A stretch of DNA of 64,000 nucleotides, taken from the NCBI RefSeq assembly GCF_016862955.1, contig NZ_BONY01000008.1, forward strand, positions 144,352-208,351, in the 5' to 3' direction. A model generated the notes under the pieces. It saw nothing but the letters and a program-made list of their open reading frames with translations. It was not told where the DNA came from and searched no databases. Position 1 is the stretch's first letter. Each line of letters opens with the position of its first letter. Made by a program: the position numbers and the translations under genes. The DNA is from Rhizocola hellebori (GTDB taxonomy: Bacteria; Actinomycetota; Actinomycetes; Mycobacteriales; Micromonosporaceae). Shown in pieces: positions 5,782-24,299 of this stretch.

Positions 5782-8234
5782 CTGCGCTGATGAGAATCAA
5801 GCTGCGCCGTGACATCCGGGCGGTGTGGCCACGGCTGGCGCTGATGGCGGCGGCCATCGCGGTGAGCCTGACCACTTTCGCGGCGGTGCTTTTCGCTTGG
5901 GCGGCCAGCGGCCGGGAGACCGGCGCCGCTTACGCGAGCACCGAGCCCGCGTCGGCGACCATCCTGCTGGACAAGCCCATTGCCGCCGGGCAGATGGCCC
6001 AGATCGCCCGCTCGGCGCTGACCAGACCGGGCGTGATACAGGCGGCCGGACGTACCCAGCTGCACAGCGCGCTGGAGGTCAACGGTCAGCCACGCGACCT
6101 GCCCATCCAGGTCTTCGTCGCTCCGGCGGACGACCCGATGCTGATGGCCAAGATGTTCCCGGCCCGACGCAGCTGGCCGCCGGCGCCGGGCGAGCTCTTC
6201 CTGGGCCGAGATTCGCTTGCGCTGCTTGACATCACGTTGGGCGATACGGTGACCATCACCGTGCCCGGTGGCGCAAAGGTGAGCCTGCGGGTCGCCGACA
6301 CCGTCTATGACCCAAGCCTGTCCCCCTCCCCCCAGGAACAGACCGCCCGCGCCTATATGTCCGCCGCGTCGCTGACCCCTGCGGGCGAAGAGCCCCAGCT
6401 GGACCAGCTCAAGATCCAGCTGGCTGAGCCAGGGCAGATAACGCCCAGCCGCGACCGCGACTATCTGGTGGCCGCCGCTGGTGAGGTCGGCCGGTGGCTG
6501 CAGAGCGACTACGGTTTGGCTGTTCGTGAGGTGCAGGTTCCTCGCCCGTACACCCATCCACATCAATGGCAGGCCGATGCGCTGCTCGCTTCGCTGCTGG
6601 CCGGGGCTGCGGCATCCTTGCTGCTGTCGGCGATCCTGGTCGCGAACATGCTCAACAACCTGTTCACCCAGCAGATCCCGCAGATCGGCATCATGAAAGC
6701 CGTCGGCGCCCGCCCCCGCCACATCGGCGGTCTCTACCTGACGATGACGCTGCTGGTTGCCGCTACGGCCACTCTGCTCGCTTTCGGTCCGGCGATCCTG
6801 CTCGGCCGGCTCGCCGTCGACACCTTCCTCGGCTTCCTGGGCATCACCCCGGCGAGCCTCGCACCTCCAAGCTGGACGGTTCTTGTCGTGCTGGCCGCAG
6901 GTTTGCTTCTGCCACCGCATTTGGCTCTGGTCCCGTTGTTCAAGGTGAGCCGGATCACCGTGCGTGCCGCGATCGACCACCACGGCGGCGGCTCCAGGCC
7001 AAGCAGGGCAACGGCTTTGCTGGCCCGGCTCAGCCGCTTTGGCGCTGTCGACCGGGGCCTGCTGATGGCGCTGCGCAACACGATCCGCCGTCCAGCCCGG
7101 TTCTGGCTGTCGGCAGGTCTGCTCGCCACCGCCGGAATGGTGTTCGTCGCCGGAATGTCGCTGAGTACCAGTACCCAAGCCATCTCTGAGGAACAGGAGC
7201 GGCAGCGCACCTGGGATCTCGACGTTCAATTGTCCGGCCAGTTCTCGATGCGGCAGATCGAAACCGCCGCGCAGCAGGTGTCCGGAGTGAACACCGTCGA
7301 GGGCTATCAGGTGGTACCGGCCGGGCTCGCCGGTCCGGGAAAGATCCCGATCACCCGCACCTACCCCGACCAGGGGCACGGCCGGATCGCTGTCACCGCC
7401 ATACCGGCCGATGCCATCACCTTCCCGCGGCCCAGGATGCTCGAAGGCCGCTGGCTCAACCCCGGCGAGACCGGCGCGCTGGTGCTCAACCAGATCACCC
7501 GCGCCAGCACCGCACCCGGCGTACAAGCAGGCGACACCGTGCAGCTCATCATCGGCGGTCAAGCCACGACCTGGCGCGTGGTCGGCATCGCGGAGGAACG
7601 TATGGGCGGAGCCGGTGGCGTCTATGCCACCGCCGAAGGGCTGGCTGTCGCCACCGGACAGCCGACGCAGGTCAATCAGCTCCGCATCGTCACCACGAAC
7701 CACGATGAGACGGCGCGCCGCACCGCCGCCGACGCGGTCGGCACCGCGCTCACCGCGGCAGGGGTCGGCGTCGCCTCCTCCAAGTCGGTCAGCCGCCGCC
7801 AGGACATCTCCGAAGGCCACCTCGGCCCGGTCATCCTCATCCTGCTCGGCATCGCTCTGCCCCTCGGCGTGGTCGGCGTCATCGGTCTGGCCTCCACCAT
7901 GAGCGCCAACGTTCTCGACCGCATCCGCGAGTTCGGAGTGATGCACGCCATCGGCGCCCGCCCGAAAGCGGTGCGCCGCATCGTCGTGGCCGAAGGTGTT
8001 TTCCTTGCCATAATCAGCTGTCTGCTCGCCATCGGCCCGGCCCTCGCGCTTACCTCAATCCTCGGCGCCGGCCTGGGCAACCTGTTCTTCGCCGCGCCAC
8101 TGCCCTACCGGGTGTCCCTACCGGCCGCGGCCATCTGGCTGGGCCTGGCGGTGCTCGGCACCATGCTGGCCACCGAGGCCGCCGCGGCACGCGCCGCGCG
8201 CCTGACCGTCCGCGAAGCCCTCACCTATCTCTAG
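5778..8234 (+). CDS. Fused double-FtsX ABC transporter permease (MacB-type, 818 aa, two large extracytoplasmic domains)
   Basis: Two repeats of N-terminal TM + about 240-aa loop + 3 TM (FtsX-like); overlaps the ATPase by 4 nt. Confidence 0.9.
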   Translation: MTALMRIKLRRDIRAVWPRLALMAAAIAVSLTTFAAVLFAWAASGRETGAAYASTEPASATILLDKPIAAGQMAQIARSALTRPGVIQAAGRTQLHSALEVNGQPRDLPIQVFVAPADDPMLMAKMFPARRSWPPAPGELFLGRDSLALLDITLGDTVTITVPGGAKVSLRVADTVYDPSLSPSPQEQTARAYMSAASLTPAGEEPQLDQLKIQLAEPGQITPSRDRDYLVAAAGEVGRWLQSDYGLAVREVQVPRPYTHPHQWQADALLASLLAGAAASLLLSAILVANMLNNLFTQQIPQIGIMKAVGARPRHIGGLYLTMTLLVAATATLLAFGPAILLGRLAVDTFLGFLGITPASLAPPSWTVLVVLAAGLLLPPHLALVPLFKVSRITVRAAIDHHGGGSRPSRATALLARLSRFGAVDRGLLMALRNTIRRPARFWLSAGLLATAGMVFVAGMSLSTSTQAISEEQERQRTWDLDVQLSGQFSMRQIETAAQQVSGVNTVEGYQVVPAGLAGPGKIPITRTYPDQGHGRIAVTAIPADAITFPRPRMLEGRWLNPGETGALVLNQITRASTAPGVQAGDTVQLIIGGQATTWRVVGIAEERMGGAGGVYATAEGLAVATGQPTQVNQLRIVTTNHDETARRTAADAVGTALTAAGVGVASSKSVSRRQDISEGHLGPVILILLGIALPLGVVGVIGLASTMSANVLDRIREFGVMHAIGARPKAVRRIVVAEGVFLAIISCLLAIGPALALTSILGAGLGNLFFAAPLPYRVSLPAAAIWLGLAVLGTMLATEAAAARAARLTVREALTYL

Positions 8235-14166: not shown

Positions 14167-15750
14167 CTATGGCTGCAGCCACCGGTTCAGGTAGCCGTGC
14201 AGTCTCGGCAGGCCGGTGACGCCAGCGCGCAAGCCGATGTATCCGTCCGGGCGGACCAGGATGAGGCCGGCGTCGCTGGGGCCGAAACCTAGACGTTGCA
14301 AGGCTTTTCCGGTCGCGTCGGTGCGGCCGGTCGCGGACAGGCGGTGGACCGCTACCGATCGGCTGTGCGGCGGGTGTAACAGTTCCCCGGCTGCGGGCCA
14401 GCCTGGCCCGCACAGCATCAAATGCCAGCCCGGCTGGCGCAACAACGTGTGCAGAGTCGTTGGCAGTCCTTCGTGGATGACTGGTGCGTCGGGCATCCGG
14501 TCGCCTGCCTTCGGCCCGCGGCGAGGAGCATGCGGTTCGTCGATCGACAGCGGGCTGCGCCGGTAGCTGATGGCCAGCTGCGAAATGGTGCGAAACCCGT
14601 ACCGGCGGCTCAGTTTGGAGCAGACCACCAAGGGGATGAGGCGGGGCGCTACCTGCGTGCGGGCGAAGCTCACCAGCGGGTTGGTAGAGGTGGCGATGGT
14701 GAAGGCCCGGTCGGTGAACCGCAGCACCTCAGCACCGATCGGCACACGTTCCGGCTGGTAGGTGTCCAGCAATCGCAACGGGGCAAGGCCGGCCGTGACC
14801 TGGGCGAGTTTCCAGCCCAAATTGACCGCGTCCTGGATGCCGGTGTTCATTCCCTGCGCTCCGGCGGGGCTGTGGATGTGCGCGGCATCCCCGGCCAGAA
14901 ACACCCGCCCGGCCCTATATTGCACCGCTCCCCTGTTGTGCAGCCGAAAATTCGTCATCCACACCGGATCGCGCAACCGCACCCCACCTTCCCCGGTGTA
15001 GGCGTCGGCCAACGCCTGAACCTCGGCCAGAAAGACGGGCTGCGCAACGGGTGTGTCATCAGAGCGCGGTCGCATGGCGAGCATTCGCCAGGTGGCTGGT
15101 TTGCCCAGCGGGAAGAAGAACAGCATTCCGTGCCGGGAAAGGAAGACGTGGGCCGCACCGGTTTCGATCCCGTCAGCCTCCAGATCCGCCAGCACAAAGG
15201 TTTGCGGGTACGCGGCGCCCTCGAAAGCTATCCCGGCCTGCTGCCGCACCGTGGAATGCGCGCCATCACAGCCGACGACGTATCCCACGTCGACCTGTTC
15301 CTGCCTACCGTCGCCGTGGCGAAGCACGCACTTAACCGCATCAGCAGTTTGTCGCATGTGGACAAGCTGGGTACCGCGTTCCACCACCACATCGCGAGAA
15401 GCAAGATGCTCACCCAGGATGCGTTCCGTTTCCGCTTGCGACAGGAACAGCAGGAACGGGTAGGCAGTATCCTCCACTCCGATATCGAACAACTCGACCG
15501 GCACCACGCGCCGCCCCGCGTGCATCCTCAGCTGGACAGCGCGATTGCCCAGGGCGACCAGCTCCTCGGTGACGCCGAGCCCGGCAAGCACCTCCAGCGT
15601 TCGCGGCTGGATCGCCAGCGCCCGCGATTCGCTTGCCCGGTCAAGGTTGCGGTCGACGATCCGCATATTGGTGCCGTAGGCCGCCAGCTGTGCGGCCAGG
15701 CTCAGCCCGGTCGGACCGGCGCCCACGACCAGCACATCCACATCGCTCAT
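14167..15750 (-). CDS. FAD-dependent aromatic-ring monooxygenase (PheA/TfdB / PHBH-fold, with C-terminal thioredoxin-like domain)
   Basis: MSDVDVLVVGAGPTGLSLAAQLAAYG is the FAD GxGxxG; DG and GD motifs (FLAGDAAHIHSPAGAQGMNTGIQDA); 527 aa. Confidence 0.85.
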   Translation of the reverse strand: MSDVDVLVVGAGPTGLSLAAQLAAYGTNMRIVDRNLDRASESRALAIQPRTLEVLAGLGVTEELVALGNRAVQLRMHAGRRVVPVELFDIGVEDTAYPFLLFLSQAETERILGEHLASRDVVVERGTQLVHMRQTADAVKCVLRHGDGRQEQVDVGYVVGCDGAHSTVRQQAGIAFEGAAYPQTFVLADLEADGIETGAAHVFLSRHGMLFFFPLGKPATWRMLAMRPRSDDTPVAQPVFLAEVQALADAYTGEGGVRLRDPVWMTNFRLHNRGAVQYRAGRVFLAGDAAHIHSPAGAQGMNTGIQDAVNLGWKLAQVTAGLAPLRLLDTYQPERVPIGAEVLRFTDRAFTIATSTNPLVSFARTQVAPRLIPLVVCSKLSRRYGFRTISQLAISYRRSPLSIDEPHAPRRGPKAGDRMPDAPVIHEGLPTTLHTLLRQPGWHLMLCGPGWPAAGELLHPPHSRSVAVHRLSATGRTDATGKALQRLGFGPSDAGLILVRPDGYIGLRAGVTGLPRLHGYLNRWLQP

Positions 15751-15807
15751 GGCGGCGACCCACGCCCGGTAGCTGCATCCATGTGGGCACTCCCGTCCAG
15801 CGGCACC

Positions 15808-15830
15808 TATACGTAGGTATCCTACACTAG
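15808..15830. promoter_or_regulatory. GTAGG-TAT-CCTAC palindrome / TAGGTATCCTACACT motif upstream of the monooxygenase. Shared with the PadR promoter at 12872.
   Basis: Read directly. Confidence 0.35.
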
Positions 15831-15831
15831 C

Positions 15832-16218
15832 CTACGGCGCCTGGCAGTGTCCGGACGGCGCGAAGCGGCAGCGCCCATCGCGGCACTCGGCGATGGTGTT
15901 GGTGATGTTCAGGCGGGTCCGCTGCAGCTCGGCGATTTTGGCATCGATGCGGTCCACAACGGCTTCCATGCGCCACAGCTGGCTGGTTTGACTTGCCTCG
16001 CCGGAGTCGTGGGCGCGCAAGGCGTCGATGACCTCGTCGAGGGTGAAGCCGAGCTGTTGAAGCATGCGGGCCATGCGGATGCGCTCGACCGCGTCCGGCG
16101 TGTAGTCGCGATATCCCGAGGGCCGCCGTTGCGCCGGCGGCAGGACTCCGCGGCGCTCATAGAAGCGCACCGTGTCGATGGTGACCCCAGCGTCTGCGGC
16201 GAGCTGACCGATCTTCAC
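15832..16218 (-). CDS. MerR-family transcriptional regulator with C-terminal Cys cluster (C112/C117/C125)
   Basis: MKIGQLAADAGVTIDTVRFYERRGVL is the HTH; the C-terminus is AECRDGRCRFAPSGHC. Confidence 0.9.
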   Translation of the reverse strand: MKIGQLAADAGVTIDTVRFYERRGVLPPAQRRPSGYRDYTPDAVERIRMARMLQQLGFTLDEVIDALRAHDSGEASQTSQLWRMEAVVDRIDAKIAELQRTRLNITNTIAECRDGRCRFAPSGHCQAP

Positions 16219-16242
16219 ATGGGACCTGATTTCTTCGACGTC

Positions 16243-16274
16243 TTGACTCTGGACCTAAGTCCAGAGTTTACGTT
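16243..16274 (+). promoter_or_regulatory. Textbook MerR-type promoter/operator: -35 TTGACT (16243-16248), 20-bp spacer containing the perfect dyad CTCTGGAC-ctaa-GTCCAGAG (16247-16266), -10 TACGTT (16269-16274). It drives the + strand operon, and MerR1 is transcribed divergently.
   Basis: Hexamers, dyad and the overlong 20-bp spacer were read directly; the architecture follows established MerR/ZntR/CueR promoters. Confidence 0.55.
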
Positions 16275-16347
16275 TGGAGGGCAACCGGGGCAACACCCCC
16301 GGTCAGATCCCGAAGGGTGGCAACAGGTGGAGGACAACATCATTTCG

Positions 16348-16743
16348 ATGCCGGACAGGCCGGTCATCGCGTGTGACATGAGCACGGCTCCAGACACGCC
16401 GGACGAGCGGACCGCCGAATACGGCCGGCTGTTCGGGCAGCACCTGCTGGGCAAAGAGCGCACGGCCGAAGGGATCCGCTTCCGGCTGCGTGCCGCCGAA
16501 GGTGTGGAGGCGTGGGTGAGGGACCTTTCCGCGCGGGAGAAGGCGTGCTGCCCGTTCGCCGACTTCGAAATCGCCACCGCCGACGAAGAGGTGCGCTGGG
16601 ACATCACCGTCGTCGACGACGATTTGGCCAGGGCGGCGCTGGACGAGTTCTACCAGGTGCCCGAGATGACAAGCGCCGGTGAAGACTGGCGGGTCATGGG
16701 ACAACGGCTGGCCGATCGCGGCTTCAGCATCACCACCCGCTGA
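16348..16743 (+). CDS. Small cytoplasmic protein with conserved E-x-x-C-C-x-F vicinal-cysteine motif (131 aa). Paralog of the next gene; unknown family.
   Basis: SAREKACCPFADFEI; RBS GGTGGAGGA; it is the C-terminal part of the 298-aa track ORF, which otherwise overlaps MerR1. Confidence 0.55.
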   Translation: MPDRPVIACDMSTAPDTPDERTAEYGRLFGQHLLGKERTAEGIRFRLRAAEGVEAWVRDLSAREKACCPFADFEIATADEEVRWDITVVDDDLARAALDEFYQVPEMTSAGEDWRVMGQRLADRGFSITTR

Positions 16744-16790
16744 CGTCCGGGGTTGCATCCTGTACCTAGGTACAGGTTTACCGTGGGGTC

Positions 16791-17156
16791 ATGACCACAC
16801 CGAACCTGCCGCCGGCCTGGGCGCCCGACGCGTGCACCCTGCCGACCGCAGACCGGCCGCTGCGGCTCTCCGAGTTCGATGACCTATTCACCGGCCTGAC
16901 GTCGCTAGACCGGATCAGCCCCGTCCAGATTCGCCTGCACCTGGCCGGGGCCGCCGGGCTGGAGGCCACGGTGCGCAATCTCACCGCCCGGGAGACCGAG
17001 TGCTGCTCGTTCTTCACCTTCACCACCACACCGGTTCCGGGCACAGCCGACGGCCGGCTGACCCTGGACGTGGAGGTACCCGCAGCGCACATCGCGGTGC
17101 TGGCGGCCCTGGCCGAGCGGGCGGAAACCCTTGCCGCATCAGGAAAGGCGAGCTGA
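16791..17156 (+). CDS. Paralogous small protein with the same vicinal-cysteine motif (121 aa)
   Basis: TARETECCSFFTFT aligns with REKACCPFADFEI in the previous gene; similar length and layout. Confidence 0.55.
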   Translation: MTTPNLPPAWAPDACTLPTADRPLRLSEFDDLFTGLTSLDRISPVQIRLHLAGAAGLEATVRNLTARETECCSFFTFTTTPVPGTADGRLTLDVEVPAAHIAVLAALAERAETLAASGKAS

Positions 17157-17181
17157 TGCAAGCCAGCGCCGGAGGCCGGCC

Positions 17182-17619
17182 GTGAACAATGAGGGCGGGC
17201 TGCGTACCGGTGAGGTCGCCGAACAGGCCGGGGTCAACATCCAAACCTTGCGCTACTACGAACGCCGGGGCCTGATCGCCGAACCCGCCCGCAGCCCCGG
17301 CGGACACCGCACCTACCCGGCCGACACGGTCACCCTGCTCGCCGTCATCAAAGCCGCCCAGAAACTCGGGTTCACCCTCGACGAGGTCGCCGAGCTGCTC
17401 GCCACCGGCCGCCGCCGTCACCCCACCCGCGACCTTCAACACCGGGCCGCCGCCAAACTCACCGAAGTGGACCAAAAGATCGCCCACCTGCACACCATCC
17501 GCCAAGCCCTCACCCAGCTGATCGCCGCCCGCTGCGACAGCCTCACCAACTGCACCTGCGCCGATTGCCCGATGCCGTTTGCCGGACTGGCCCAACCCGA
17601 AGGACCCACACCACAATGA
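17182..17619 (+). CDS. MerR-family regulator with C-terminal Cys-rich tail (CDSLTNCTCADCP)
   Basis: GTG start with a GGAGG SD; HTH GLRTGEVAEQAGVNIQTLRYYERRGL; four Cys in the last 30 aa. Confidence 0.85.
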   Translation: MNNEGGLRTGEVAEQAGVNIQTLRYYERRGLIAEPARSPGGHRTYPADTVTLLAVIKAAQKLGFTLDEVAELLATGRRRHPTRDLQHRAAAKLTEVDQKIAHLHTIRQALTQLIAARCDSLTNCTCADCPMPFAGLAQPEGPTPQ

Positions 17620-17918
17620 CCACACCTGCCACGCAGCAGACGGCACACGGACAAGACAACAGCCCACCCAAACGCAGCAAGATAACCGGCGGGCTCGCCG
17701 CGCTCGCATGCGCGGCCTGCTGCGCCATCCCACTACTGATCGCCGCCGGACTGGTGACCGGCGCAGGAGCCGCGATCCTGGAGAAGACCCTGCTCGCCGT
17801 CGCCGCGCTGCTGGCGGCTGCCGCCCTGGGCATGTGGTGGTGGCACCGCCGCCGCCAAGCCGCAAAAGCCGTCGCCGCGGGCGCATCCGGCTGCGGCAGC
17901 GGCAACTGCTCCTGCTAA
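17616..17918 (+). CDS. MerF/MerT-like small membrane protein (2 TM, CC pair in TM1, C-terminal CGSGNCSC). A putative thiophilic-metal transporter.
   Basis: GGLAALACAACCAIPLLIAAGLV resembles the MerT/MerF TM1 vicinal-Cys motif; ATGA overlap with MerR2. Confidence 0.5.
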   Translation: MTTPATQQTAHGQDNSPPKRSKITGGLAALACAACCAIPLLIAAGLVTGAGAAILEKTLLAVAALLAAAALGMWWWHRRRQAAKAVAAGASGCGSGNCSC

Positions 17919-18128: not shown

Positions 18129-18890
18129 TCAGGCGACTTTGCGGTGGTACACCCTCATGGCGAACGCGTAGGCGACGATGAGGATGCCGGCGCACCAGCC
18201 CAGGGCGATCCAGATGTCATTGCCGACGGGCTGCTGCTCGAACAAGGCTCGCAGGGCGTTGACGATGGAGGTGACCGGCTGGTTCTCGGCGAAGGCTTTC
18301 ACCGGTCCGGGCATGGTTTCGGTGGGGACGAAGGCCGAGCTGATGAAGGGCAGGAAGATGAGCGGGTAGGAGAAGGCGGTCGCACCGTCGGTGGAGGAGG
18401 CCGCCAGCCCCGCGATCATCGCAACCCAGGTCAGGGAGAGGGTGAACATCGCCAGGATCGCGGCGACGGCGAGCCAGTCGAGGATTCCCGCCGAGGTACG
18501 GAATCCCATCACCAGCCCGACGGCGATGATGACGACCACCGAGATGGCGTTGGACACCACCGAGGTCAGCACGTGTCCCCATAGGACAGACGATCGTGCG
18601 ATCGGCATGGAGTGGAACCGTTCGAAGATGCCGCTTTGCATGTCGTTGAACAACCGGAAGCCCGTGTAGGAGATGCCACTGGCGATGGCGATGAGCAAAA
18701 TCCCGGGCATCAGATAGTTGGTGTAGTTGTCGGTGCCGGTCTGGATGGCACCGCCGAACACGTAGCGGAACAACAGCATGAACGCGATCGGCATGATGGT
18801 GACGGTGATGATGGTGTCCATGCTGCGGGTGACGTGCCGGATGGACCGGCCGAGCATTACCCCTGTGTTGCTGATGACATGTGCGCTCAT
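18129..18890 (-). CDS. ABC-2 type exporter permease (6 TM)
   Basis: 253 aa, ABC-2 hydrophobic pattern; ATGA overlap with the ATPase. Confidence 0.85.
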   Translation of the reverse strand: MSAHVISNTGVMLGRSIRHVTRSMDTIITVTIMPIAFMLLFRYVFGGAIQTGTDNYTNYLMPGILLIAIASGISYTGFRLFNDMQSGIFERFHSMPIARSSVLWGHVLTSVVSNAISVVVIIAVGLVMGFRTSAGILDWLAVAAILAMFTLSLTWVAMIAGLAASSTDGATAFSYPLIFLPFISSAFVPTETMPGPVKAFAENQPVTSIVNALRALFEQQPVGNDIWIALGWCAGILIVAYAFAMRVYHRKVA

Positions 18891-19660
18891 CGCCGCGCTC
18901 CTTCCTTGTTTCCGACGATCGCCAGGAAGATCTCTTCCAGGGTGGGCTGACGTTCGACCAGTTCGGCCTTTGCGGGCGGCAGGAGCTGACGTAGCTCTGC
19001 CAGAGTGCCGGAGACGATGATGATGCCCTGGTGCAGGATGGCTATGCGGTCGGCCAGTTTTTCGGCCTCTTCCAGGTATTGGGTGGTGAGAAGGATCGTC
19101 GTTCCTTTGCCGGCCAGGCTTTGGATCTCGTGCCACACTTCGAGGCGGGCTTCCGGGTCAAGCCCGGTGGTCGGCTCGTCCAGGAAGATGACCGGCGGGT
19201 CGCCGATGAGGCTCATGGCGATGTCGAGGCGGCGGCGCATGCCACCGGAATAGGTCGCTACTCGGCGTCCTCCCGCATCGGACAGGCCGAACCGTGCCAG
19301 CAGGTCGTCGGCGACGGTGCCAGGATTGGGTACCAGCCGCAGCTTGGCGACCATGATGAGGTTCTCCCGGCCGGTGAGGATCTCGTCGACCGCGGCGAAC
19401 TGCCCGGTCAGGCTGATCGACTCCCGAACCCGCTCCGGCTTGGCCACCGCGTCGAATCCGTTGACTGTTGCCGTTCCGCCATCTGGTTTGAGCAAAGTGG
19501 ACAGGATGCGGACAACGGTGGTCTTGCCGGCTCCGTTGGAGCCGAGCAGCGCGAAGATGCTCCCGCTGGCCACCGAGAAGTCCACGCCTTTGAGGACTTC
19601 GAGTTTGCCGTAAGACTTTTGCAATCCGCTGACTTGGATGGCGAGGGGTGGGGTTTTCAT
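18887..19660 (-). CDS. ABC transporter ATP-binding protein (DrrA-like)
   Basis: GSNGAGKTT (Walker A), YSGGMRRRLDIAMSL (signature), VIFLDEPTTGLD (Walker B). Confidence 0.9.
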   Translation of the reverse strand: MKTPPLAIQVSGLQKSYGKLEVLKGVDFSVASGSIFALLGSNGAGKTTVVRILSTLLKPDGGTATVNGFDAVAKPERVRESISLTGQFAAVDEILTGRENLIMVAKLRLVPNPGTVADDLLARFGLSDAGGRRVATYSGGMRRRLDIAMSLIGDPPVIFLDEPTTGLDPEARLEVWHEIQSLAGKGTTILLTTQYLEEAEKLADRIAILHQGIIIVSGTLAELRQLLPPAKAELVERQPTLEEIFLAIVGNKEGARR

Positions 19661-19674
19661 GTGTCGCTCTCTCC

Positions 19675-20532
19675 TTATTCGACAGTCACGTTGGCGGGGG
19701 CAACGCCGAAGCCTTTGAGCGCGGCGTAGGTCAGCTTGTCCATGCGCGCCCCTTCGAAGTTCACAGTGGCCAAGGCCCGGTAGTACTTCTTGCTCCAGCC
19801 ACGGAAGGAGCAGTCGCGCAGGATCGCCCCTCGCATCGACACGCCCTCAAGCCCTGCCCGGTCGAACTTCACCCCGGTGAAGGACGCCCCGTCGAAGTTG
19901 AGGCCGCTCAGATCGGAGATGGAGAAGTCCACGCCGGTGAAGGTGCAGCGCTCGAAGATGGTGTGGCGAAGGTCGGTCTTGCGGAACGCGACATCGATCA
20001 ACACCGCGTCGGCGAAGCGGACTCCTTCGAGACCGGAGATGCTGAAGTCGGTGCGCACCAACCGGGTTCGGTGGAAGCTGGAACCCTTCAGCTCGGAGGT
20101 GGTCATGACCGCGTCGGTCAGGTTGGCGCCGTCGAAGTTCGCCTCGGCCAGGTCGCTGCTCTTGAACTTGCCACCGGTCAGATCCGCGTTGGCGAAATTG
20201 GAGCCACGCAGCGCGCTGGTGCTGAACTTTCCGTCCCGCGCCACCACACCGGCGAAGTCGCTTCCCCGCAGGTCGGTCGAATCGAATCGGGTCACGACCT
20301 TTCGCTCCAGCACCCGAGACAGTTGCGACACCTCCTGCACCGTCTCCTCGATGTCGCCGATGCTGTCGACGGTCATCTCGAAAGCGGTCTCCTCGTCCTT
20401 GCCTTCGGCCAGCAGCTCGCGATATCGCTCCTGCAGGTCGGCGAGCAGATCAGCTTTGAGCTCACCGACGCTCTTGGTGCCCTCGTAGGTGGCGAAGATG
20501 CCGTCGATGTATTCGTTCAGCCTGTTGTTCAT
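19675..20532 (-). CDS. Pentapeptide-repeat protein with N-terminal PadR-associated (HAAS/DUF1700-like) helical domain. No TM segment.
   Basis: N-terminus MNNRLNEYIDGIFATYEGTKSVGELKADLLADLQERYRELLAEGKDEETAFEMTVDSIGDIEET; residues 80-285 are continuous A(D/N)LxG pentapeptide repeats. Confidence 0.8.
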   Translation of the reverse strand: MNNRLNEYIDGIFATYEGTKSVGELKADLLADLQERYRELLAEGKDEETAFEMTVDSIGDIEETVQEVSQLSRVLERKVVTRFDSTDLRGSDFAGVVARDGKFSTSALRGSNFANADLTGGKFKSSDLAEANFDGANLTDAVMTTSELKGSSFHRTRLVRTDFSISGLEGVRFADAVLIDVAFRKTDLRHTIFERCTFTGVDFSISDLSGLNFDGASFTGVKFDRAGLEGVSMRGAILRDCSFRGWSKKYYRALATVNFEGARMDKLTYAALKGFGVAPANVTVE

Positions 20533-20544
20533 CGTGGTTTCCCC

Positions 20545-20874
20545 TTACAGCAGCGTGTCCAGTACGCGTTTGGCGTACGCCCAGGTGGTTTTGTTGTGCG
20601 CGTAAGTCGCGTGGCCTTTTTCGGTTACCCGGAAGTACTTGCGTCTTCCGCCCTGGGATTCGTCGCCCCAGTACCACGTGATGTCGCCATCGGCTTCCAG
20701 ACGCCGGACGCTGGAGTACATCGTGGCTTCCTTGAGCTCGTACTCGCCCTTTGATCGTTCGCCGATCAGCTTGACGATCTCGTAGCCGTAACGGTCTGCC
20801 TCCGTCAGCAACCGCAAGATCATCGTGTCGGTGTTCCCCCGTAGCAGGTCAGATGTGACCTTGTTCGTGCTCAT
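20545..20874 (-). CDS. PadR-family transcriptional regulator (lower GC than its neighbours)
   Basis: LRGNTDTMILRLLTEADRYGYEIVKLI...TMYSSVRRLEADGDI. Confidence 0.9.
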   Translation of the reverse strand: MSTNKVTSDLLRGNTDTMILRLLTEADRYGYEIVKLIGERSKGEYELKEATMYSSVRRLEADGDITWYWGDESQGGRRKYFRVTEKGHATYAHNKTTWAYAKRVLDTLL

Positions 20875-20986
20875 ACCTCACCTCCTGAGCTACACCGTAG
20901 CTCGCACTACTGTGACTGTCAAGGTACTAGGGTATTCGAGGTAGGCCGATGGGTATGGTGGGTCCAGCGTGCGACTGGTTTAATTT

Positions 20987-21040
20987 CTACCTTGAATTTT
21001 TTAACATCTCAACTAGATGATCTTAATTTATTCAAGGTAG
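20987..21040. promoter_or_regulatory. AT-rich island with 10-bp perfect inverted repeat CTACCTTGAA ... TTCAAGGTAG (34-nt spacer) upstream of the PadR gene. A candidate PadR operator.
   Basis: Region 20881-21053 is markedly AT-rich; the IR was read directly. Confidence 0.4.
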
Positions 21041-21053
21041 TTAGCTGAAGTCG

Positions 21054-23000
21054 TTAAACCTCGATGTGAGAGCCCATGATGATGGTGCGGTCGCGCGGCA
21101 GGGCGAAGTGTTCGGCGGCGTCGGCGGTGATGTGTGAGGTGGCCACGAACAGCCGCTTGCGCCACGGCACCATCGAGGCGTCGGGGCCGCTGCGCAATTC
21201 AATGGTGGAAAGGAAATAGGAGGCGTCGTCGAGGTCGAGGCGCCCCTCGGTCTGGGCTGGGTCCAGCATCCGCAGCGCGGCCGGCACGTCAGGGTTTTCC
21301 ATGTAGCCGAAGCGCGCCGTCACATGGATGATGCCGTCATCGGCGTGGCCGAGGTCGTCGACGATAAGCCTTTCCTCGGCCGGCACTCGCGGCATCGGTT
21401 CGGTTTGCACCGACAGGATCACGACGTGCTGGTGGCGGACCCGGTTGTGTTCCACGTTGGCCCGCAACGCCAGTGGCGCGGTTGCCTTGCCCCGGTTGAG
21501 AAACACGGCGGTGCCCGGCGTGCGGCGGATCAGGGCTTTGCCGTCACGCAGTTTGGCGACGAACTCGCTCAGTGAGCCTTCGCGCTGCTGACGGCGAGCG
21601 GTGACCAGCTCACGCCCACGCTGCCATGTGATCATGATGGTGAAGGCGACAATGGCGATCAACAGCGGCAGCCAGGCGCCGTGCAGGATCTTGGTCAGGT
21701 TGGCGGCCAGGAAGAGCAGATCGACGCCGAGCAGGATGACCGCGCCAATAGCCAGCAGCCACACCGGTGTCTTCCACTTCAGGTGGGCGACATAGAGGAA
21801 CAGTGTCGTGGTGATGGTGATAGTTCCGGTGACCGCCATGCCGAACGCGAAGGCGAGCGCCGCCGAGCTGCGGAAGGCGAACACCAGGATCAGCACGGAG
21901 GTCATCAGCAGCCAGTTGATCCACGGTACGTAGATCTGGCCAATCGTCGACTCGGAGGTGTGCGCGATCCGCAGTCTGGGCAGATAACCCAATCGTGCGG
22001 CCTGCGCCGCGACCGAGAACGCGCCGGTGATCACCGCTTGCGAGGCGATCACCGTGGCGGCGGTGGCCAGCAGTACCAGCGGCAGCCGCGCCCAGCCCGG
22101 GGCGAGCAGGAAGAAGGGGCTGCTGATGTTGGCCGGGTCTTCGAGGATCAGCGCGCCCTGGCCCATGTAGCTCAATGCGCAGGCGGGCAGCACGAGGAAC
22201 AGCCATCCTCGTGCGATGGCCTTGCGGCCGAAGTGACCCATGTCGGCGTACAGCGCCTCGGCGCCGGTGATGGCCAGCACGATCGCGGCCAGCGCGAAAA
22301 ACGCGACCCCGAAGTTGCCGGCCAGGAACTTCAGCGCGTAAAGCGGTGACAGGGCTTTGAGGATGTCCGGATGGGTGGCGATGCCCACGACACCCAGGAC
22401 GCCGATGGTGGTGAACCAGACGATCATCACCGGCCCGAAGACCTTGCCCACGGCCGCAGTTCCGCGCCGCTGCACCAGAAACAGGGCCACGATGATCACC
22501 GCTGTGATGGGGATGATCGCGTCTGCGAAGGCCGGGTTGACGACCTTGATGCCCTCCACTGCGGACAGTACCGAGATCGCCGGGGTGATCATGCTGTCGC
22601 CGAAGAACAGCGCGGCGCCGAAGATGCCCAGTCCGGCCAGGGTCACGGCCGCCCGCTTGCCGGTGCCCGAAGCCCACTGCCGCAGCAGGGTGATCAGCGC
22701 CATGATGCCGCCTTCACCCTGGTTGTCTATCCGCATGGCCAGAAGTACGTAGGTCACCGTCACGATGATCATCACGGACCAGAAGATGGTGGAGACCACA
22801 CCGAAGACATTGTCGACCGATACCGGCACCGGATGGGGATCGGCCGGGTTGAACACCGTCTGAATGGTGTAGATCGGGCTGGTGCCGATGTCGCCGAACA
22901 CCACGCCCAGGGCGGCGACGATCACTGCCAGCCGCACGACATCGCTTACCCCGCGGTCGTGATTCGTCTCGGCCTGTGGGTGATTGCCGGCCATTACCAT
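21054..23000 (-). CDS. kup: KUP/HAK/KT-family potassium uptake protein
   Basis: GVVFGDIGTSPIY near the N-terminus; about 650 aa, 12 TM + C-terminal cytoplasmic domain; the exact start is uncertain (the ORF extends to 23051). Confidence 0.9.
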   Translation of the reverse strand: MVMAGNHPQAETNHDRGVSDVVRLAVIVAALGVVFGDIGTSPIYTIQTVFNPADPHPVPVSVDNVFGVVSTIFWSVMIIVTVTYVLLAMRIDNQGEGGIMALITLLRQWASGTGKRAAVTLAGLGIFGAALFFGDSMITPAISVLSAVEGIKVVNPAFADAIIPITAVIIVALFLVQRRGTAAVGKVFGPVMIVWFTTIGVLGVVGIATHPDILKALSPLYALKFLAGNFGVAFFALAAIVLAITGAEALYADMGHFGRKAIARGWLFLVLPACALSYMGQGALILEDPANISSPFFLLAPGWARLPLVLLATAATVIASQAVITGAFSVAAQAARLGYLPRLRIAHTSESTIGQIYVPWINWLLMTSVLILVFAFRSSAALAFAFGMAVTGTITITTTLFLYVAHLKWKTPVWLLAIGAVILLGVDLLFLAANLTKILHGAWLPLLIAIVAFTIMITWQRGRELVTARRQQREGSLSEFVAKLRDGKALIRRTPGTAVFLNRGKATAPLALRANVEHNRVRHQHVVILSVQTEPMPRVPAEERLIVDDLGHADDGIIHVTARFGYMENPDVPAALRMLDPAQTEGRLDLDDASYFLSTIELRSGPDASMVPWRKRLFVATSHITADAAEHFALPRDRTIIMGSHIEV

Positions 23001-23105
23001 TCCTCCGCCCGAGCGGTGGGCCACCGCATGATCGGTGTCCTCCAGCGGCACATTATCCGGCCCGCCGCCGGTGGCATCGGGCTGGGCGCGCCTCGCGCGA
23101 GACGC

Positions 23106-24299
23106 TCAAGGCTGGCTGGCAACGATTTGTGACTGCAGCGCACGGCTGCCCGTGCTCGCGGCATACGCGCACACCGCCATCCACGCGCCCATCAGCCAGA
23201 TGAACACGTGGACATTAACCACGTTGCCGAGCAGCCCAAGCGGGAAACTGAGCATGAAAAGCGCCAGCCTCGCCCAGGTCGCTTTGTCGAAGTCGATCCG
23301 CATCCCCAGCAGATAGGTACCGATGCCGCAGCTGACCAACCAGTATCCGGCCACCGCGGGGTTGGGCAGCAGCAGCACCCGCAACCCTGCGGCGATCATG
23401 ACGATGGCGAACGCGGGAATTATTCGCCCGGCGCCAAAGACCGATCGCGCAATTTCCGGTGCCCCGCCTGACATTTCCAGCAGTCGCTCGTAGGTGCGCG
23501 CCACGGCGTCGAAATAGGTCCACCACAAAGCGCCGGCCAGAACGAGCACACCGGCGGCATCCGGCCACGACAGGTCGCCGTGCGCCACTGCCGCCTGCCC
23601 GGCCGTCACCACGACCTCACCGAGCAGGATGATGATGAACAGGCCGAGCCGTTCGGCTAGATGCGGCACGTTGAGCGCGTACTCCGGATCGGTCGGCTTG
23701 AGCAGCCGCAGGCTTTTGCGCCAGTCTTTGCCCGTGTCCGCCTGCTCTTCGGCGGAGAGGCGGCGGGGTTTGCCCGCGGCGAACGCCGCGAGGGACTCGC
23801 TGACGATCACGGCCGCCCACAGCAGCCACCACAACGGGCTGGGCAGCAGCAGCGACACCACCAACGCGATGGCCGACGCCCCGTAAGCGGACGCGATGCG
23901 TCTGGACAGGTCGCGCCCCTGCACCGCGTTCATGACCGCAAGCAGTGCCCGGGCGGCGGCAAGGCTCAGGGTGAACGCCACCCGGTGACCATCCATGAGG
24001 GCGGGCAATGCCACCGCCGCCAGCCCGCACGGGACGGTCGCCGCGATCAGCGCAAGGCGTTGCCATGCCGAACGGTCGTCGCCGTAACGGTTGTAGAAGA
24101 CGACGAACCCGATCCAGGTCCACCACAACACCGCGAACAGGCCCAGACCCTGCGCCAGCCCGGCCCATCCCGGATGGTCGGCCACCACATGGGACACCTG
24201 CGCGATCGCCAGGACGAAGACCAGGTCGAAGTAGACCTCGATCCACGCTGCTTTCTTCACTGCCGGGATGGGGGTGATCATGCCGCCCATTATGATCAA
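23106..24299 (-). CDS. Low-temperature-requirement A (LtrA)-family membrane protein
   Basis: EVYFDLVFVLAIAQVSH N-terminal signature; 397 aa polytopic. Confidence 0.75.
   Translation of the reverse strand: MIIMGGMITPIPAVKKAAWIEVYFDLVFVLAIAQVSHVVADHPGWAGLAQGLGLFAVLWWTWIGFVVFYNRYGDDRSAWQRLALIAATVPCGLAAVALPALMDGHRVAFTLSLAAARALLAVMNAVQGRDLSRRIASAYGASAIALVVSLLLPSPLWWLLWAAVIVSESLAAFAAGKPRRLSAEEQADTGKDWRKSLRLLKPTDPEYALNVPHLAERLGLFIIILLGEVVVTAGQAAVAHGDLSWPDAAGVLVLAGALWWTYFDAVARTYERLLEMSGGAPEIARSVFGAGRIIPAFAIVMIAAGLRVLLLPNPAVAGYWLVSCGIGTYLLGMRIDFDKATWARLALFMLSFPLGLLGNVVNVHVFIWLMGAWMAVCAYAASTGSRALQSQIVASQP

Follow-up and report, generated by a model that had tools for sequence, protein, structure and literature searches.

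A conserved PadR, HAAS-pentapeptide and ABC-2 gene cassette in Rhizocola hellebori as a candidate autoregulated efflux system

Four adjacent genes lie together in a 64,000-nucleotide stretch of the Rhizocola hellebori genome (contig NZ_BONY01000008.1, positions 144,352 to 208,351; this whole stretch is hereafter called the window). From their sequences and those of their relatives we favour, on balance, the view that they form an autoregulated and self-contained efflux or resistance cassette, in which a HAAS-like domain fused to pentapeptide repeats would act as the signalling partner of a PadR repressor. The four co-directional open reading frames (ORFs) occupy positions 18129-20874 of the minus strand and encode, in order of transcription, the PadR regulator, the fusion protein, and the ATPase and permease of an ATP-binding cassette (ABC) exporter of the ABC-2 type. 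A previous reading, made from the sequence alone and called below the sequence-only reading, had proposed this gene order, the operon structure and the four domain assignments; all were borne out by the ORFs found at these coordinates and by Pfam or NCBIfam matches. It had also taken the module for a system of immunity to topoisomerase poisons, and there our analysis departs from it: for the second gene product, a role in signalling to the repressor is more likely than Qnr-like protection of gyrase. The features of the locus are as follows.

20545-20874, minus strand: padR, 109 amino acids (PF03551, E=5e-20)
19675-20532, minus strand: HAAS-pentapeptide fusion gene, 285 amino acids (Pfam Pentapeptide_4, E=1e-42)
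20299-20532, minus strand: HAAS-like N-terminal domain of the fusion protein, residues 1-78 (NF038403 match; invariant SIGDIE motif)
19798-20298, minus strand: pentapeptide-repeat right-handed beta-helix, residues 79-245, about 8 coils and no loops (from Pfam, AlphaFold2 and Foldseek)
19675-19797, minus strand: C-terminal helical cap, residues 246-285, and stop codon (model helices 248-255 and 266-274)
18887-19660, minus strand: ABC ATPase gene, 257 amino acids (ABC_tran, PF00005, E=3e-28)
18129-18890, minus strand: ABC-2 permease gene, 253 amino acids counted from the ATG (PF01061, E=2e-20)
20906-20927, minus strand: putative PadR operator, imperfect palindrome GTACCTTGACAGTCACAGTAGT with a TAC-N13-GTA core, overlapping the -35 box
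20894-20922, minus strand: sigma-70-type promoter, with -35 box TTGACA at 20917-20922, a 17-nt spacer and -10 box TACGGT at 20894-20899
20987-21040, no strand assigned: perfect 11-bp inverted repeat, AT-rich, with arms CTACCTTGAAT and ATTCAAGGTAG, between kup and the promoter

Conservation, spread and outputs of the cassette

A scan of one genome per species returned 232 loci with relatives of the cassette, of which the best 80 were examined. In 62 of these 80 the full set of four genes is intact and lies side by side, several of the other loci being interrupted by contig ends; because the gene order is the same in these 62 loci, the four-gene arrangement is far beyond chance. The link between the first two genes is tighter still, a full-length padR being found directly upstream of the fusion gene in 76 loci (at 12 nt in the window), and distant relatives of the fusion protein likewise have a PadR gene directly upstream. 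Judging from record titles, and hence approximately, about 40 loci come from Bacillota (mostly Paenibacillus, plus Sporolactobacillus, Neobacillus, Acetobacterium and a Clostridiales metagenome-assembled genome, MAG), about 20 from Actinomycetota (Micromonosporaceae, Nocardia, Thermoleophilia) and about 15 from Chloroflexota; the others are from Spirochaetota (3), Ignavibacteriota (1) and a Chromatiales MAG (1). Compared with their window counterparts, the PadR proteins of these loci are 65-94% identical (mostly 80-94%), the fusion proteins 58-85%, the ATPases 66-89% (mostly 72-89%) and the permeases 50-91% (mostly 70-91%); the nearest relatives of the fusion protein are those of Micromonosporaceae, at 83-85%.

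Clustering of the flanking genes of the 80 loci revealed neither a fifth conserved gene nor a biosynthetic cluster: the largest flanking family is present in 6 loci, no locus links the cassette to a Psp, Lia or Toastrack gene, and the genes that surround it in the window recur near it in 2 loci at most (Kup in 2). Since the distribution crosses phyla and the flanks are unrelated, we take the cassette to be a self-contained unit that has spread horizontally. No vehicle was identified; the plasmid collection contained no close copy (best identity 33%) and gave no sign of plasmid carriage.

Horizontal acquisition had been suggested by the sequence-only reading too, on the ground that the module has a lower GC content and sits beside an AT-rich island. 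The lower GC content is real (62.2% for the cassette against 66.5% for the window, i.e. 4.3 points less, which places it in the lowest 2.4% of equal-sized windows), and horizontal spread is supported by the distribution and the flanks, but the GC dip cannot serve as evidence for recent transfer. GC at third codon positions (GC3) is 0.78-0.89 in the cassette and 0.78-0.86 in the neighbouring genes, and a comparison of cassette with flanks in 67 loci showed the former to be up to 12 points lower in high-GC hosts and up to 13 points higher in low-GC hosts. Since GC3 equals that of the neighbours and the sign of the offset follows the GC content of the host, the offset reflects a constrained amino-acid sequence rather than recent arrival. 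As for the AT-rich island, it is the 179-nt intergenic region between kup and padR, which has 45% GC (28% in its core), holds the lowest-GC 200-nt stretch of the window, and contains the promoter and the 11-bp inverted repeat.

The exporter genes are the less constant half of the cassette. In nine loci they are gone while PadR and the fusion gene remain intact, and out of 101 positions with a conservation of 95% or more among exporter-linked proteins, the fusion proteins of these loci keep 94-100; because of this retention, the PadR/HAAS-pentapeptide dyad appears to be functional without the exporter. Deletion scars are visible in three more loci (L028, L032 and L033, at about 5880-6260): in the first two the N-terminus of the ATPase is joined to the C-terminus of the permease, and in L033 an ATPase fragment is fused in frame with the repeat protein to give a 391-aa ORF. 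In two loci the ABC genes are replaced by a gene of the beta-lactamase family (PF00144) that directly follows the fusion gene (L046:5882-7135 and L065:5921-7162); the two are unrelated, one belonging to a Paenibacillus and the other to an Ignavibacteriota MAG. Distant HAAS-pentapeptide proteins occur as bare PadR dyads (on a Peribacillus plasmid, in protein P0281 and in Bacillus muralis), and after yet another distant relative, P0268 (locus L087), an ATPase of the same type begins 13 nt later. Taken together, the exporter-less dyads, the PF00144 substitution and the distant dyads, bare or ATPase-linked, point to a regulatory pair with exchangeable outputs.

Further variations on the theme were seen. 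Paenibacillus glycinis T1 has two copies of the dyad (L059 and L061), with fusion proteins that are 92.7% identical and ABC genes in one copy only. The distant dyad of P0281 lies immediately downstream of, and on the same strand as, a histidine kinase gene and a BceAB-like ABC_tran/FtsX pair (L083:954-3534). In a Rugosimonospora MAG (L011:600-956), padR carries an internal deletion which joins an N-terminal KITSDLLR to the C-terminal part, the fusion and ABC genes being intact; the copy may be derepressed by nature, or the deletion may have arisen in assembly.

Control region and gene products

The 90 nt upstream of padR can be aligned as DNA from Paenibacillus to the window (78 loci aligned). 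Within them, a family palindrome, (A/G)(C/T)TACCTTGACAGNCAYAGTA(G/C)T, encloses the TTGACA -35 box, which is near-invariant; the -10 box is TACGGT in the window and TATTAT or TATAAT in the Firmicutes loci. A conserved CTTGAC, which starts one base upstream of the -35 hexamer, is found 49-50 nt before the ATG in 67 of the 78 loci. In the 64-kb window the operator palindrome has a single match, against 0.01 expected. Since a repressor seated on it would block RNA polymerase at the -35 box, PadR probably binds the palindrome at 20906-20927 and represses its own synthesis, and the gating by PadR that had been assumed by the sequence-only reading is thus plausible. Each arm of the inverted repeat at 20987-21040, the loop of which is 33 nt long, holds the operator half-site 8-mer TACCTTGA. 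There are three copies of this 8-mer in the window, all at 20919-21039, whereas 67 of the 78 related loci have the promoter copy only, and the threefold arrangement is a peculiarity of the window; the repeat could be an auxiliary operator, the terminator of kup or the remnant of a duplication.

Over its full length the window PadR aligns with BhPadR (9QBD, E=5e-31) and LmrR (3F8B, E=5e-27), its best NCBIfam match is TIGR03433 (63 bits), and its W98 aligns with W96 of LmrR, the tryptophan of helix alpha-4; by sequence, then, it belongs with the LmrR-like members of PadR subfamily 2 (PadR-s2). Proteins of this subfamily have about 110 aa, with a winged helix-turn-helix and one C-terminal helix for dimerisation. 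The alpha-4 tryptophan is a general feature of PadR-s2 proteins and the open drug pore of LmrR appears to be unique among PadR-s2 structures (PMC13122737). For these two reasons direct drug sensing by the window PadR is possible but not implied.

That the fusion protein begins with a HAAS-like domain, as the sequence-only reading had it, is corroborated by several observations. The NCBIfam model NF038403 (perm_prefix_1, 'permease prefix domain 1'), with a cut-off of 30 bits, scores 35.1 bits against the full protein and 38.2 bits against its isolated N-terminal 80 aa, and is passed by 40 of 40 wider relatives sampled; the Pfam HAAS model PF22564 is matched weakly by 11 of these 40 (best E=0.004) and is the commonest Pfam match among the relatives. 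When the N-terminal profile was used in a word-indexed search, truncated members of the fusion family were all that came back, but an exhaustive HMMER profile search, which retrieved 1203 proteins, reached relatives fused to Toastrack: among longer remote relatives, pentapeptide repeats are present in 7 of the 10 tested and Toastrack (DUF4097) in 5 further proteins. When the N-terminal 80 aa are modelled separately, helices are predicted at 3-14, 20-42, 47-58 and 61-78, with a break at G59-D60, i.e. within the invariant SIGDIE motif; this gives three helices with a break at an invariant glycine, to be compared with the three-helix core of HAAS, which is kinked at a GxP motif.

According to PMC11237479, the 2024 paper in which HAAS was defined, the domain is always encoded beside a PadR gene and is proposed to pass signals to PadR, with HAAS proteins relaying them from associated membrane components. 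The architectures listed there include HAAS-Toastrack, 'PadR -> HAAS+MacB_PCD+FtsX' and combinations with pentapeptide repeats, such as 'PadR-like-wHTH -> HAAS+Pentapeptide' (wHTH, winged helix-turn-helix) for Bacillus muralis AOH56696.1; the fusion to a soluble pentapeptide domain is consequently neither new nor, as had first been supposed, unusual. It is from these architectures that we infer the equivalence of the NF038403 domain with HAAS. Because of the NF038403 match, the PF22564 matches of the relatives and the agreement with the published architectures, we accept the N-terminal domain as a divergent HAAS, with the caveats given in the next section. A profile search of the PDB with the wider N-terminal alignment produced a designed repeat protein and noise only, and hhalign found no relation to the one DUF1048 protein with which the domain was compared (probability 0.1). 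The latter protein is from Catellatospora aurea, where a separate dyad of PadR and DUF1048 (PF06304, 112 bits; L006:3261-3940) lies about 700 nt upstream of the cassette, so that two HAAS-type dyads are next to each other.

The fusion protein has no hydrophobic or transmembrane segment (the highest 19-residue Kyte-Doolittle mean is 1.24) and is predicted to be soluble. Its AlphaFold2 model, for which 48 homologues were used, has a mean predicted local distance difference test score (pLDDT) of 88. It starts with three helices, predicted with moderate confidence, continues as a right-handed beta-helix that runs without interruption over about residues 79-245 (pLDDT 90-98) and ends in a two-helix C-terminal cap. 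The sequence-only reading had described everything after the N-terminal domain as an uninterrupted solenoid: this is correct up to about residue 245, but the last 40 residues form the helical cap. The repeat domain is a right-handed quadrilateral beta-helix of tandem pentapeptide repeats of the A(D/N)LXX type, matched above cut-off by each of PF13599, PF00805 and PF13576, with a register of 20 residues and F or L at every fifth position, and the Foldseek matches of the model in the PDB are pentapeptide-repeat structures. Its net charge is +1 (pI 7.7) in the window protein, with a median of 0 and a range of -7 to +5 across 79 family members. Within the protein, conservation is highest in the HAAS domain, which has a mean column identity of 0.85 versus 0.76 for the repeats. 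The cap (residues 246-285) contains a near-invariant helix, MDKLTYAxLK, the conservation of which exceeds that of most of the solenoid and which could be a dimerisation or partner-binding element.

On the exporter side, the ATPase scores 283.5 bits with the drrA model TIGR01188, below the cut-off of 312, and covers positions 1-218 of the 302 in the model; it is without the C-terminal domain of DrrA, i.e. about 85 residues of the model. Its motifs are intact (Walker A at G40-T47 with lysine K46, Q-loop, signature YSGGM and Walker B VIFLDEP), and the solved structures that it matches best are lipid transporters of the ABCA type. The permease, with its six hydrophobic, transmembrane-like segments, scores 86 bits with TIGR00025 and reaches 51 bits with the drrB model (cut-off 223). 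Homologues 91-92% identical to it bear, in two NCBI records, the source annotation 'multidrug efflux ABC transporter permease LieB'. The pair can be classed by sequence as a DrrAB/LieAB-type exporter, consisting of a short DrrA-like nucleotide-binding domain (NBD) and a six-transmembrane (6-TM) ABC-2 permease, which are translationally coupled.

The genes are closely packed: padR and the fusion gene are 12 nt apart, the fusion and ATPase genes 14 nt apart, and the ATPase and permease genes share a 4-nt ATGA overlap. The sequence-only reading had seen the overlap but had given a range of 3-12 nt for the gaps, which is a little inaccurate. A ribosome-binding site precedes each downstream gene and is of the AAGGxG type at the 12-nt and 14-nt gaps. 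For the permease a longer ORF with a GTG start exists; homologues give it no support and the ATG start was preferred. Since PADLOC returned generic ABC-ATPase matches on the cassette and nothing else, the cassette is not a known defence system. The neighbouring genes in the window are unrelated to it. They encode an FAD-dependent aromatic-ring hydroxylase (14167-15750, minus strand), two MerR-family regulators (15832-16218, minus strand, and 17131-17619, plus strand), the potassium transporter Kup (21054-23051, minus strand) and LtrA (23106-24299, minus strand); small unassigned ORFs sit between and after the two MerR-family genes, in the stretch 14167-17918.

Proposed working and alternative explanations

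We propose the following working. A PadR-s2 dimer, bound to the palindrome over the -35 box of the single promoter, would repress padR, the HAAS-pentapeptide gene and the exporter genes together. The HAAS domain would be the module that interacts with PadR, and the pentapeptide beta-helix would offer a cytoplasmic sensor or adaptor surface, a role taken by Toastrack or by membrane domains in other HAAS proteins. The signal would most likely be a toxic natural product or the effect of one on the cell; in response to it, the HAAS protein would help to free PadR from the DNA, and derepression would then allow a LieAB/DrrAB-type exporter, with two NBDs and two 6-TM permeases, to be made and the compound to be pumped out. 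The steps that we infer here are the binding of PadR to the palindrome, the contact between HAAS and PadR, the sensing by the repeat domain and the nature of the substrate.

Several points weigh against this proposal. The window fusion protein has no match at E<=1 with the Pfam models DUF1700, DUF1048 and HAAS, contrary to what the sequence-only reading would lead one to expect; besides, the motif at the kink is G-D-I (G-D-I/V in the family, within SIGDI) and not the GxP of HAAS. For the exporter, orthology with LieAB is suggested by the annotation names of two records. Direct sensing of drugs is within the reach of LmrR-type PadRs, which makes a co-regulator dispensable in principle. Finally, the existence of at least nine exporter-less dyads that are still constrained indicates that the dyad has some function apart from this exporter, and it may just as well be that the repeat protein is itself an effector.

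A more specific form of the proposal is attractive, but we put it forward as a speculation that is rather unlikely to hold: the beta-helix could be a cytoplasmic 'guard' receptor for the toxic compound, for a poisoned target such as gyrase, or for the ATPase of the exporter, and would strip the LmrR-like PadR from its operator via the HAAS domain. If this were true, pentapeptide repeats would acquire a new signalling role, and a soluble and tractable model for the 'alternative two-component' mechanism of HAAS-PadR would be at hand, in a cassette that has moved between at least five phyla.

One may also imagine that the fusion protein is a sensor coupled to the transporter, or an accessory subunit of the pump. 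The repeat helix would dock on the short ATPase or on the cytoplasmic face of the permease and report transport via HAAS, in a BceAB-BceS-like manner. The missing C-terminal residues of the ATPase would fit with this, as would the proposed relay from membrane components by HAAS proteins (PMC11237479) and the association of the fusion gene with this particular ATPase/permease pair in the 62 complete loci, to which the ATPase following P0268 can be added. We nevertheless consider it unlikely: where the transporter is missing the dyad is kept intact together with its conserved positions, the wider relatives of the Peribacillus plasmid, P0281 and Bacillus muralis stand alone, and two loci have a hydrolase instead of a pump.

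Another possibility, the one retained by the sequence-only reading, is that the pentapeptide domain protects gyrase or topoisomerase IV in the manner of Qnr, MfpA or McbG; together with the exporter it would provide a two-layer immunity to a topoisomerase poison, comparable to that which McbG and McbEF confer against microcin B17, PadR merely gating expression. The fold is shared with Qnr, MfpA and AlbG, and the trio formed by a pentapeptide protein, an ATPase of about 250 aa and an ABC-2 permease of about 250 aa mirrors McbG/McbF/McbE. Purifying selection on the PadR/pentapeptide-protein pair after loss of the ABC genes is what one would expect of a protective repeat protein, and the C-terminal helices could dimerise as they do in MfpA and Qnr. 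However, the DNA mimicry of MfpA and Qnr reportedly depends on an anionic surface, as Hegde et al. are said to have found in 2005, whereas the repeat domain is near neutral, with its charge of +1 and family median of 0 set against -9 for QnrA1 (pI 4.85; a single reference protein, from a Providencia plasmid). Scores with the Qnr, MfpA and HetL equivalog models are all four- to ten-fold under cut-off (e.g. Qnr, 56 bits versus 240; MfpA, 38 versus 360), those with the QnrA-S models being 36-49 versus 425-500. The structural match is generic, in that synthetic solenoids, DotG and HetL outscore Qnr, MfpA and AlbG. Neither a conserved neighbour nor biosynthetic genes accompany the cassette in the 80 loci or in the flanks of the window; constraint on the protein is strongest in the HAAS domain, a part that is absent from known topoisomerase protectors; and LieAB, the nearest characterised namesake of the exporter, handles a membrane-active depsipeptide. 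Binding to gyrase is compatible with these data, but with neutral charge, sub-cut-off Qnr and MfpA scores and no linked biosynthetic genes, immunity to topoisomerase poisons has no positive evidence and we regard it as improbable.

It seems very improbable that the cassette has nothing to do with resistance, i.e. that the substrate of the exporter is a lipid, peptide or envelope component of the cell itself and that the PadR/HAAS dyad answers envelope or membrane stress. HAAS was first described alongside PspC, LiaF and Toastrack, with dyads in phage-shock and Lia neighbourhoods (PMC11237479), the best structural matches of the ATPase are lipid transporters, and the very high conservation of the proteins across phyla suggests a conserved substrate. 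Yet linkage to Psp, Lia or Toastrack was seen in 0 of 80 loci, the fusion protein is predicted to be soluble, the patchy and non-syntenic distribution is more in keeping with an accessory resistance trait than with housekeeping export, and among characterised systems the nearest analogues, LmrR-LmrCD and LftRS-LieAB, respond to xenobiotics. Lastly, we set aside the idea that the pentapeptide domain mimics DNA and thereby competes with the operator in binding PadR, the domain being charge-neutral.

If the fusion protein is indeed the signalling partner of PadR, its pentapeptide-repeat domain would have a function outside the topoisomerase paradigm. It has been proposed that HAAS-PadR dyads offer an alternative to two-component signalling, with LftS as the only genetic support, and the cassette is convenient for their study: its regulatory side is small and soluble, it is extremely conserved, and it comes with its own promoter, operator and output genes. 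It is at the same time a candidate for a widespread environmental resistance determinant, in view of the 60-90% identity from Paenibacillus to Micromonosporaceae, of the unrelated contexts and of the likeness to the aurantimycin module. Such genes should not receive an annotation of Qnr-like quinolone resistance on fold alone.

Comparison with known systems

The fusion architecture and the pairing of PadR with HAAS are already known, having been described bioinformatically in PMC11237479. Our search of the literature found no description of the ABC-linked four-gene cassette, of its conservation across phyla or of its operator, and, apart from that paper, none in the library searched in which PadR, pentapeptide repeats and an ABC transporter are linked. 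The HAAS-PadR dyads of PMC11237479 have the same two-gene core, the same fusion architecture, a strict adjacency to PadR and a three-helix unit broken at a conserved glycine, such as the model predicts for the window domain. They differ in that the published example is a bare dyad and that they are given as 'mostly in Firmicutes', whereas here the dyad is welded to an ABC-2 exporter and found in at least five phyla; the window motif is also SIGDI instead of GxP, and Pfam HAAS is unmatched by the window protein. In the acidobacterial systems, in which a PadR of the TIGR03433 type accompanies a 'permease prefix domain 1'-FtsX/MacB protein, the same NF038403 domain is present, and TIGR03433 is the best NCBIfam match of the window PadR; there, however, the domain is on the membrane permease itself (FtsX/MacB), while in the cassette it is carried by a soluble repeat protein and accompanied by a transporter of the ABC-2 type.

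LmrR-LmrCD of Lactococcus lactis shares with the cassette an LmrR-like PadR-s2 protein with the alpha-4 tryptophan, LmrR being autoregulated and in control of an ABC multidrug exporter. It has no HAAS partner, and in place of an ABC-2 pump LmrR controls a full-size heterodimer of type I, LmrCD. The pentapeptide beta-helix is the trait common to McbEFG, Qnr, MfpA and AlbG, and McbEFG also has a small ABC ATPase and an ABC-2-type permease in the same operon. In contrast to the cassette, these systems have neither HAAS nor PadR and their repeat proteins are anionic DNA mimics, whereas the repeat domain here is neutral; McbEFG is moreover located inside the biosynthetic cluster of its producer, while none of the genes next to the cassette are conserved.

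Among working systems the closest analogue is LftR/LftS-LieAB of Listeria monocytogenes, of which the cassette would be, in logic, a cis-linked version. In both cases a PadR-s2 repressor of about 108 aa is associated with an adjacent co-regulator of the HAAS superfamily, in which DUF1048 has been placed (PMC11237479), and with a DrrAB-type exporter. LieA and LieB form such a 'daunorubicin-resistance' pair, with Walker lysine K44 (PMC4517056), to be compared with K46 of the window ATPase. LftS, a DUF1048 protein, is needed for the induction of lieAB by aurantimycin through LftR (10.1101/2023.07.27.550809), and LftR binds a partial palindrome with half-sites of the GTA/TAC type, the window palindrome being TAC-N13-GTA. 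The differences are equally clear: LftS is a small stand-alone protein without a pentapeptide domain, and no DUF1048 similarity was detected for the window N-terminal domain; lieAB forms a separate operon regulated in trans; and, of the solved PadR-s2 proteins, LmrR and BhPadR (E=1e-27 to 1e-31) resemble the window PadR far more than most of the others do.

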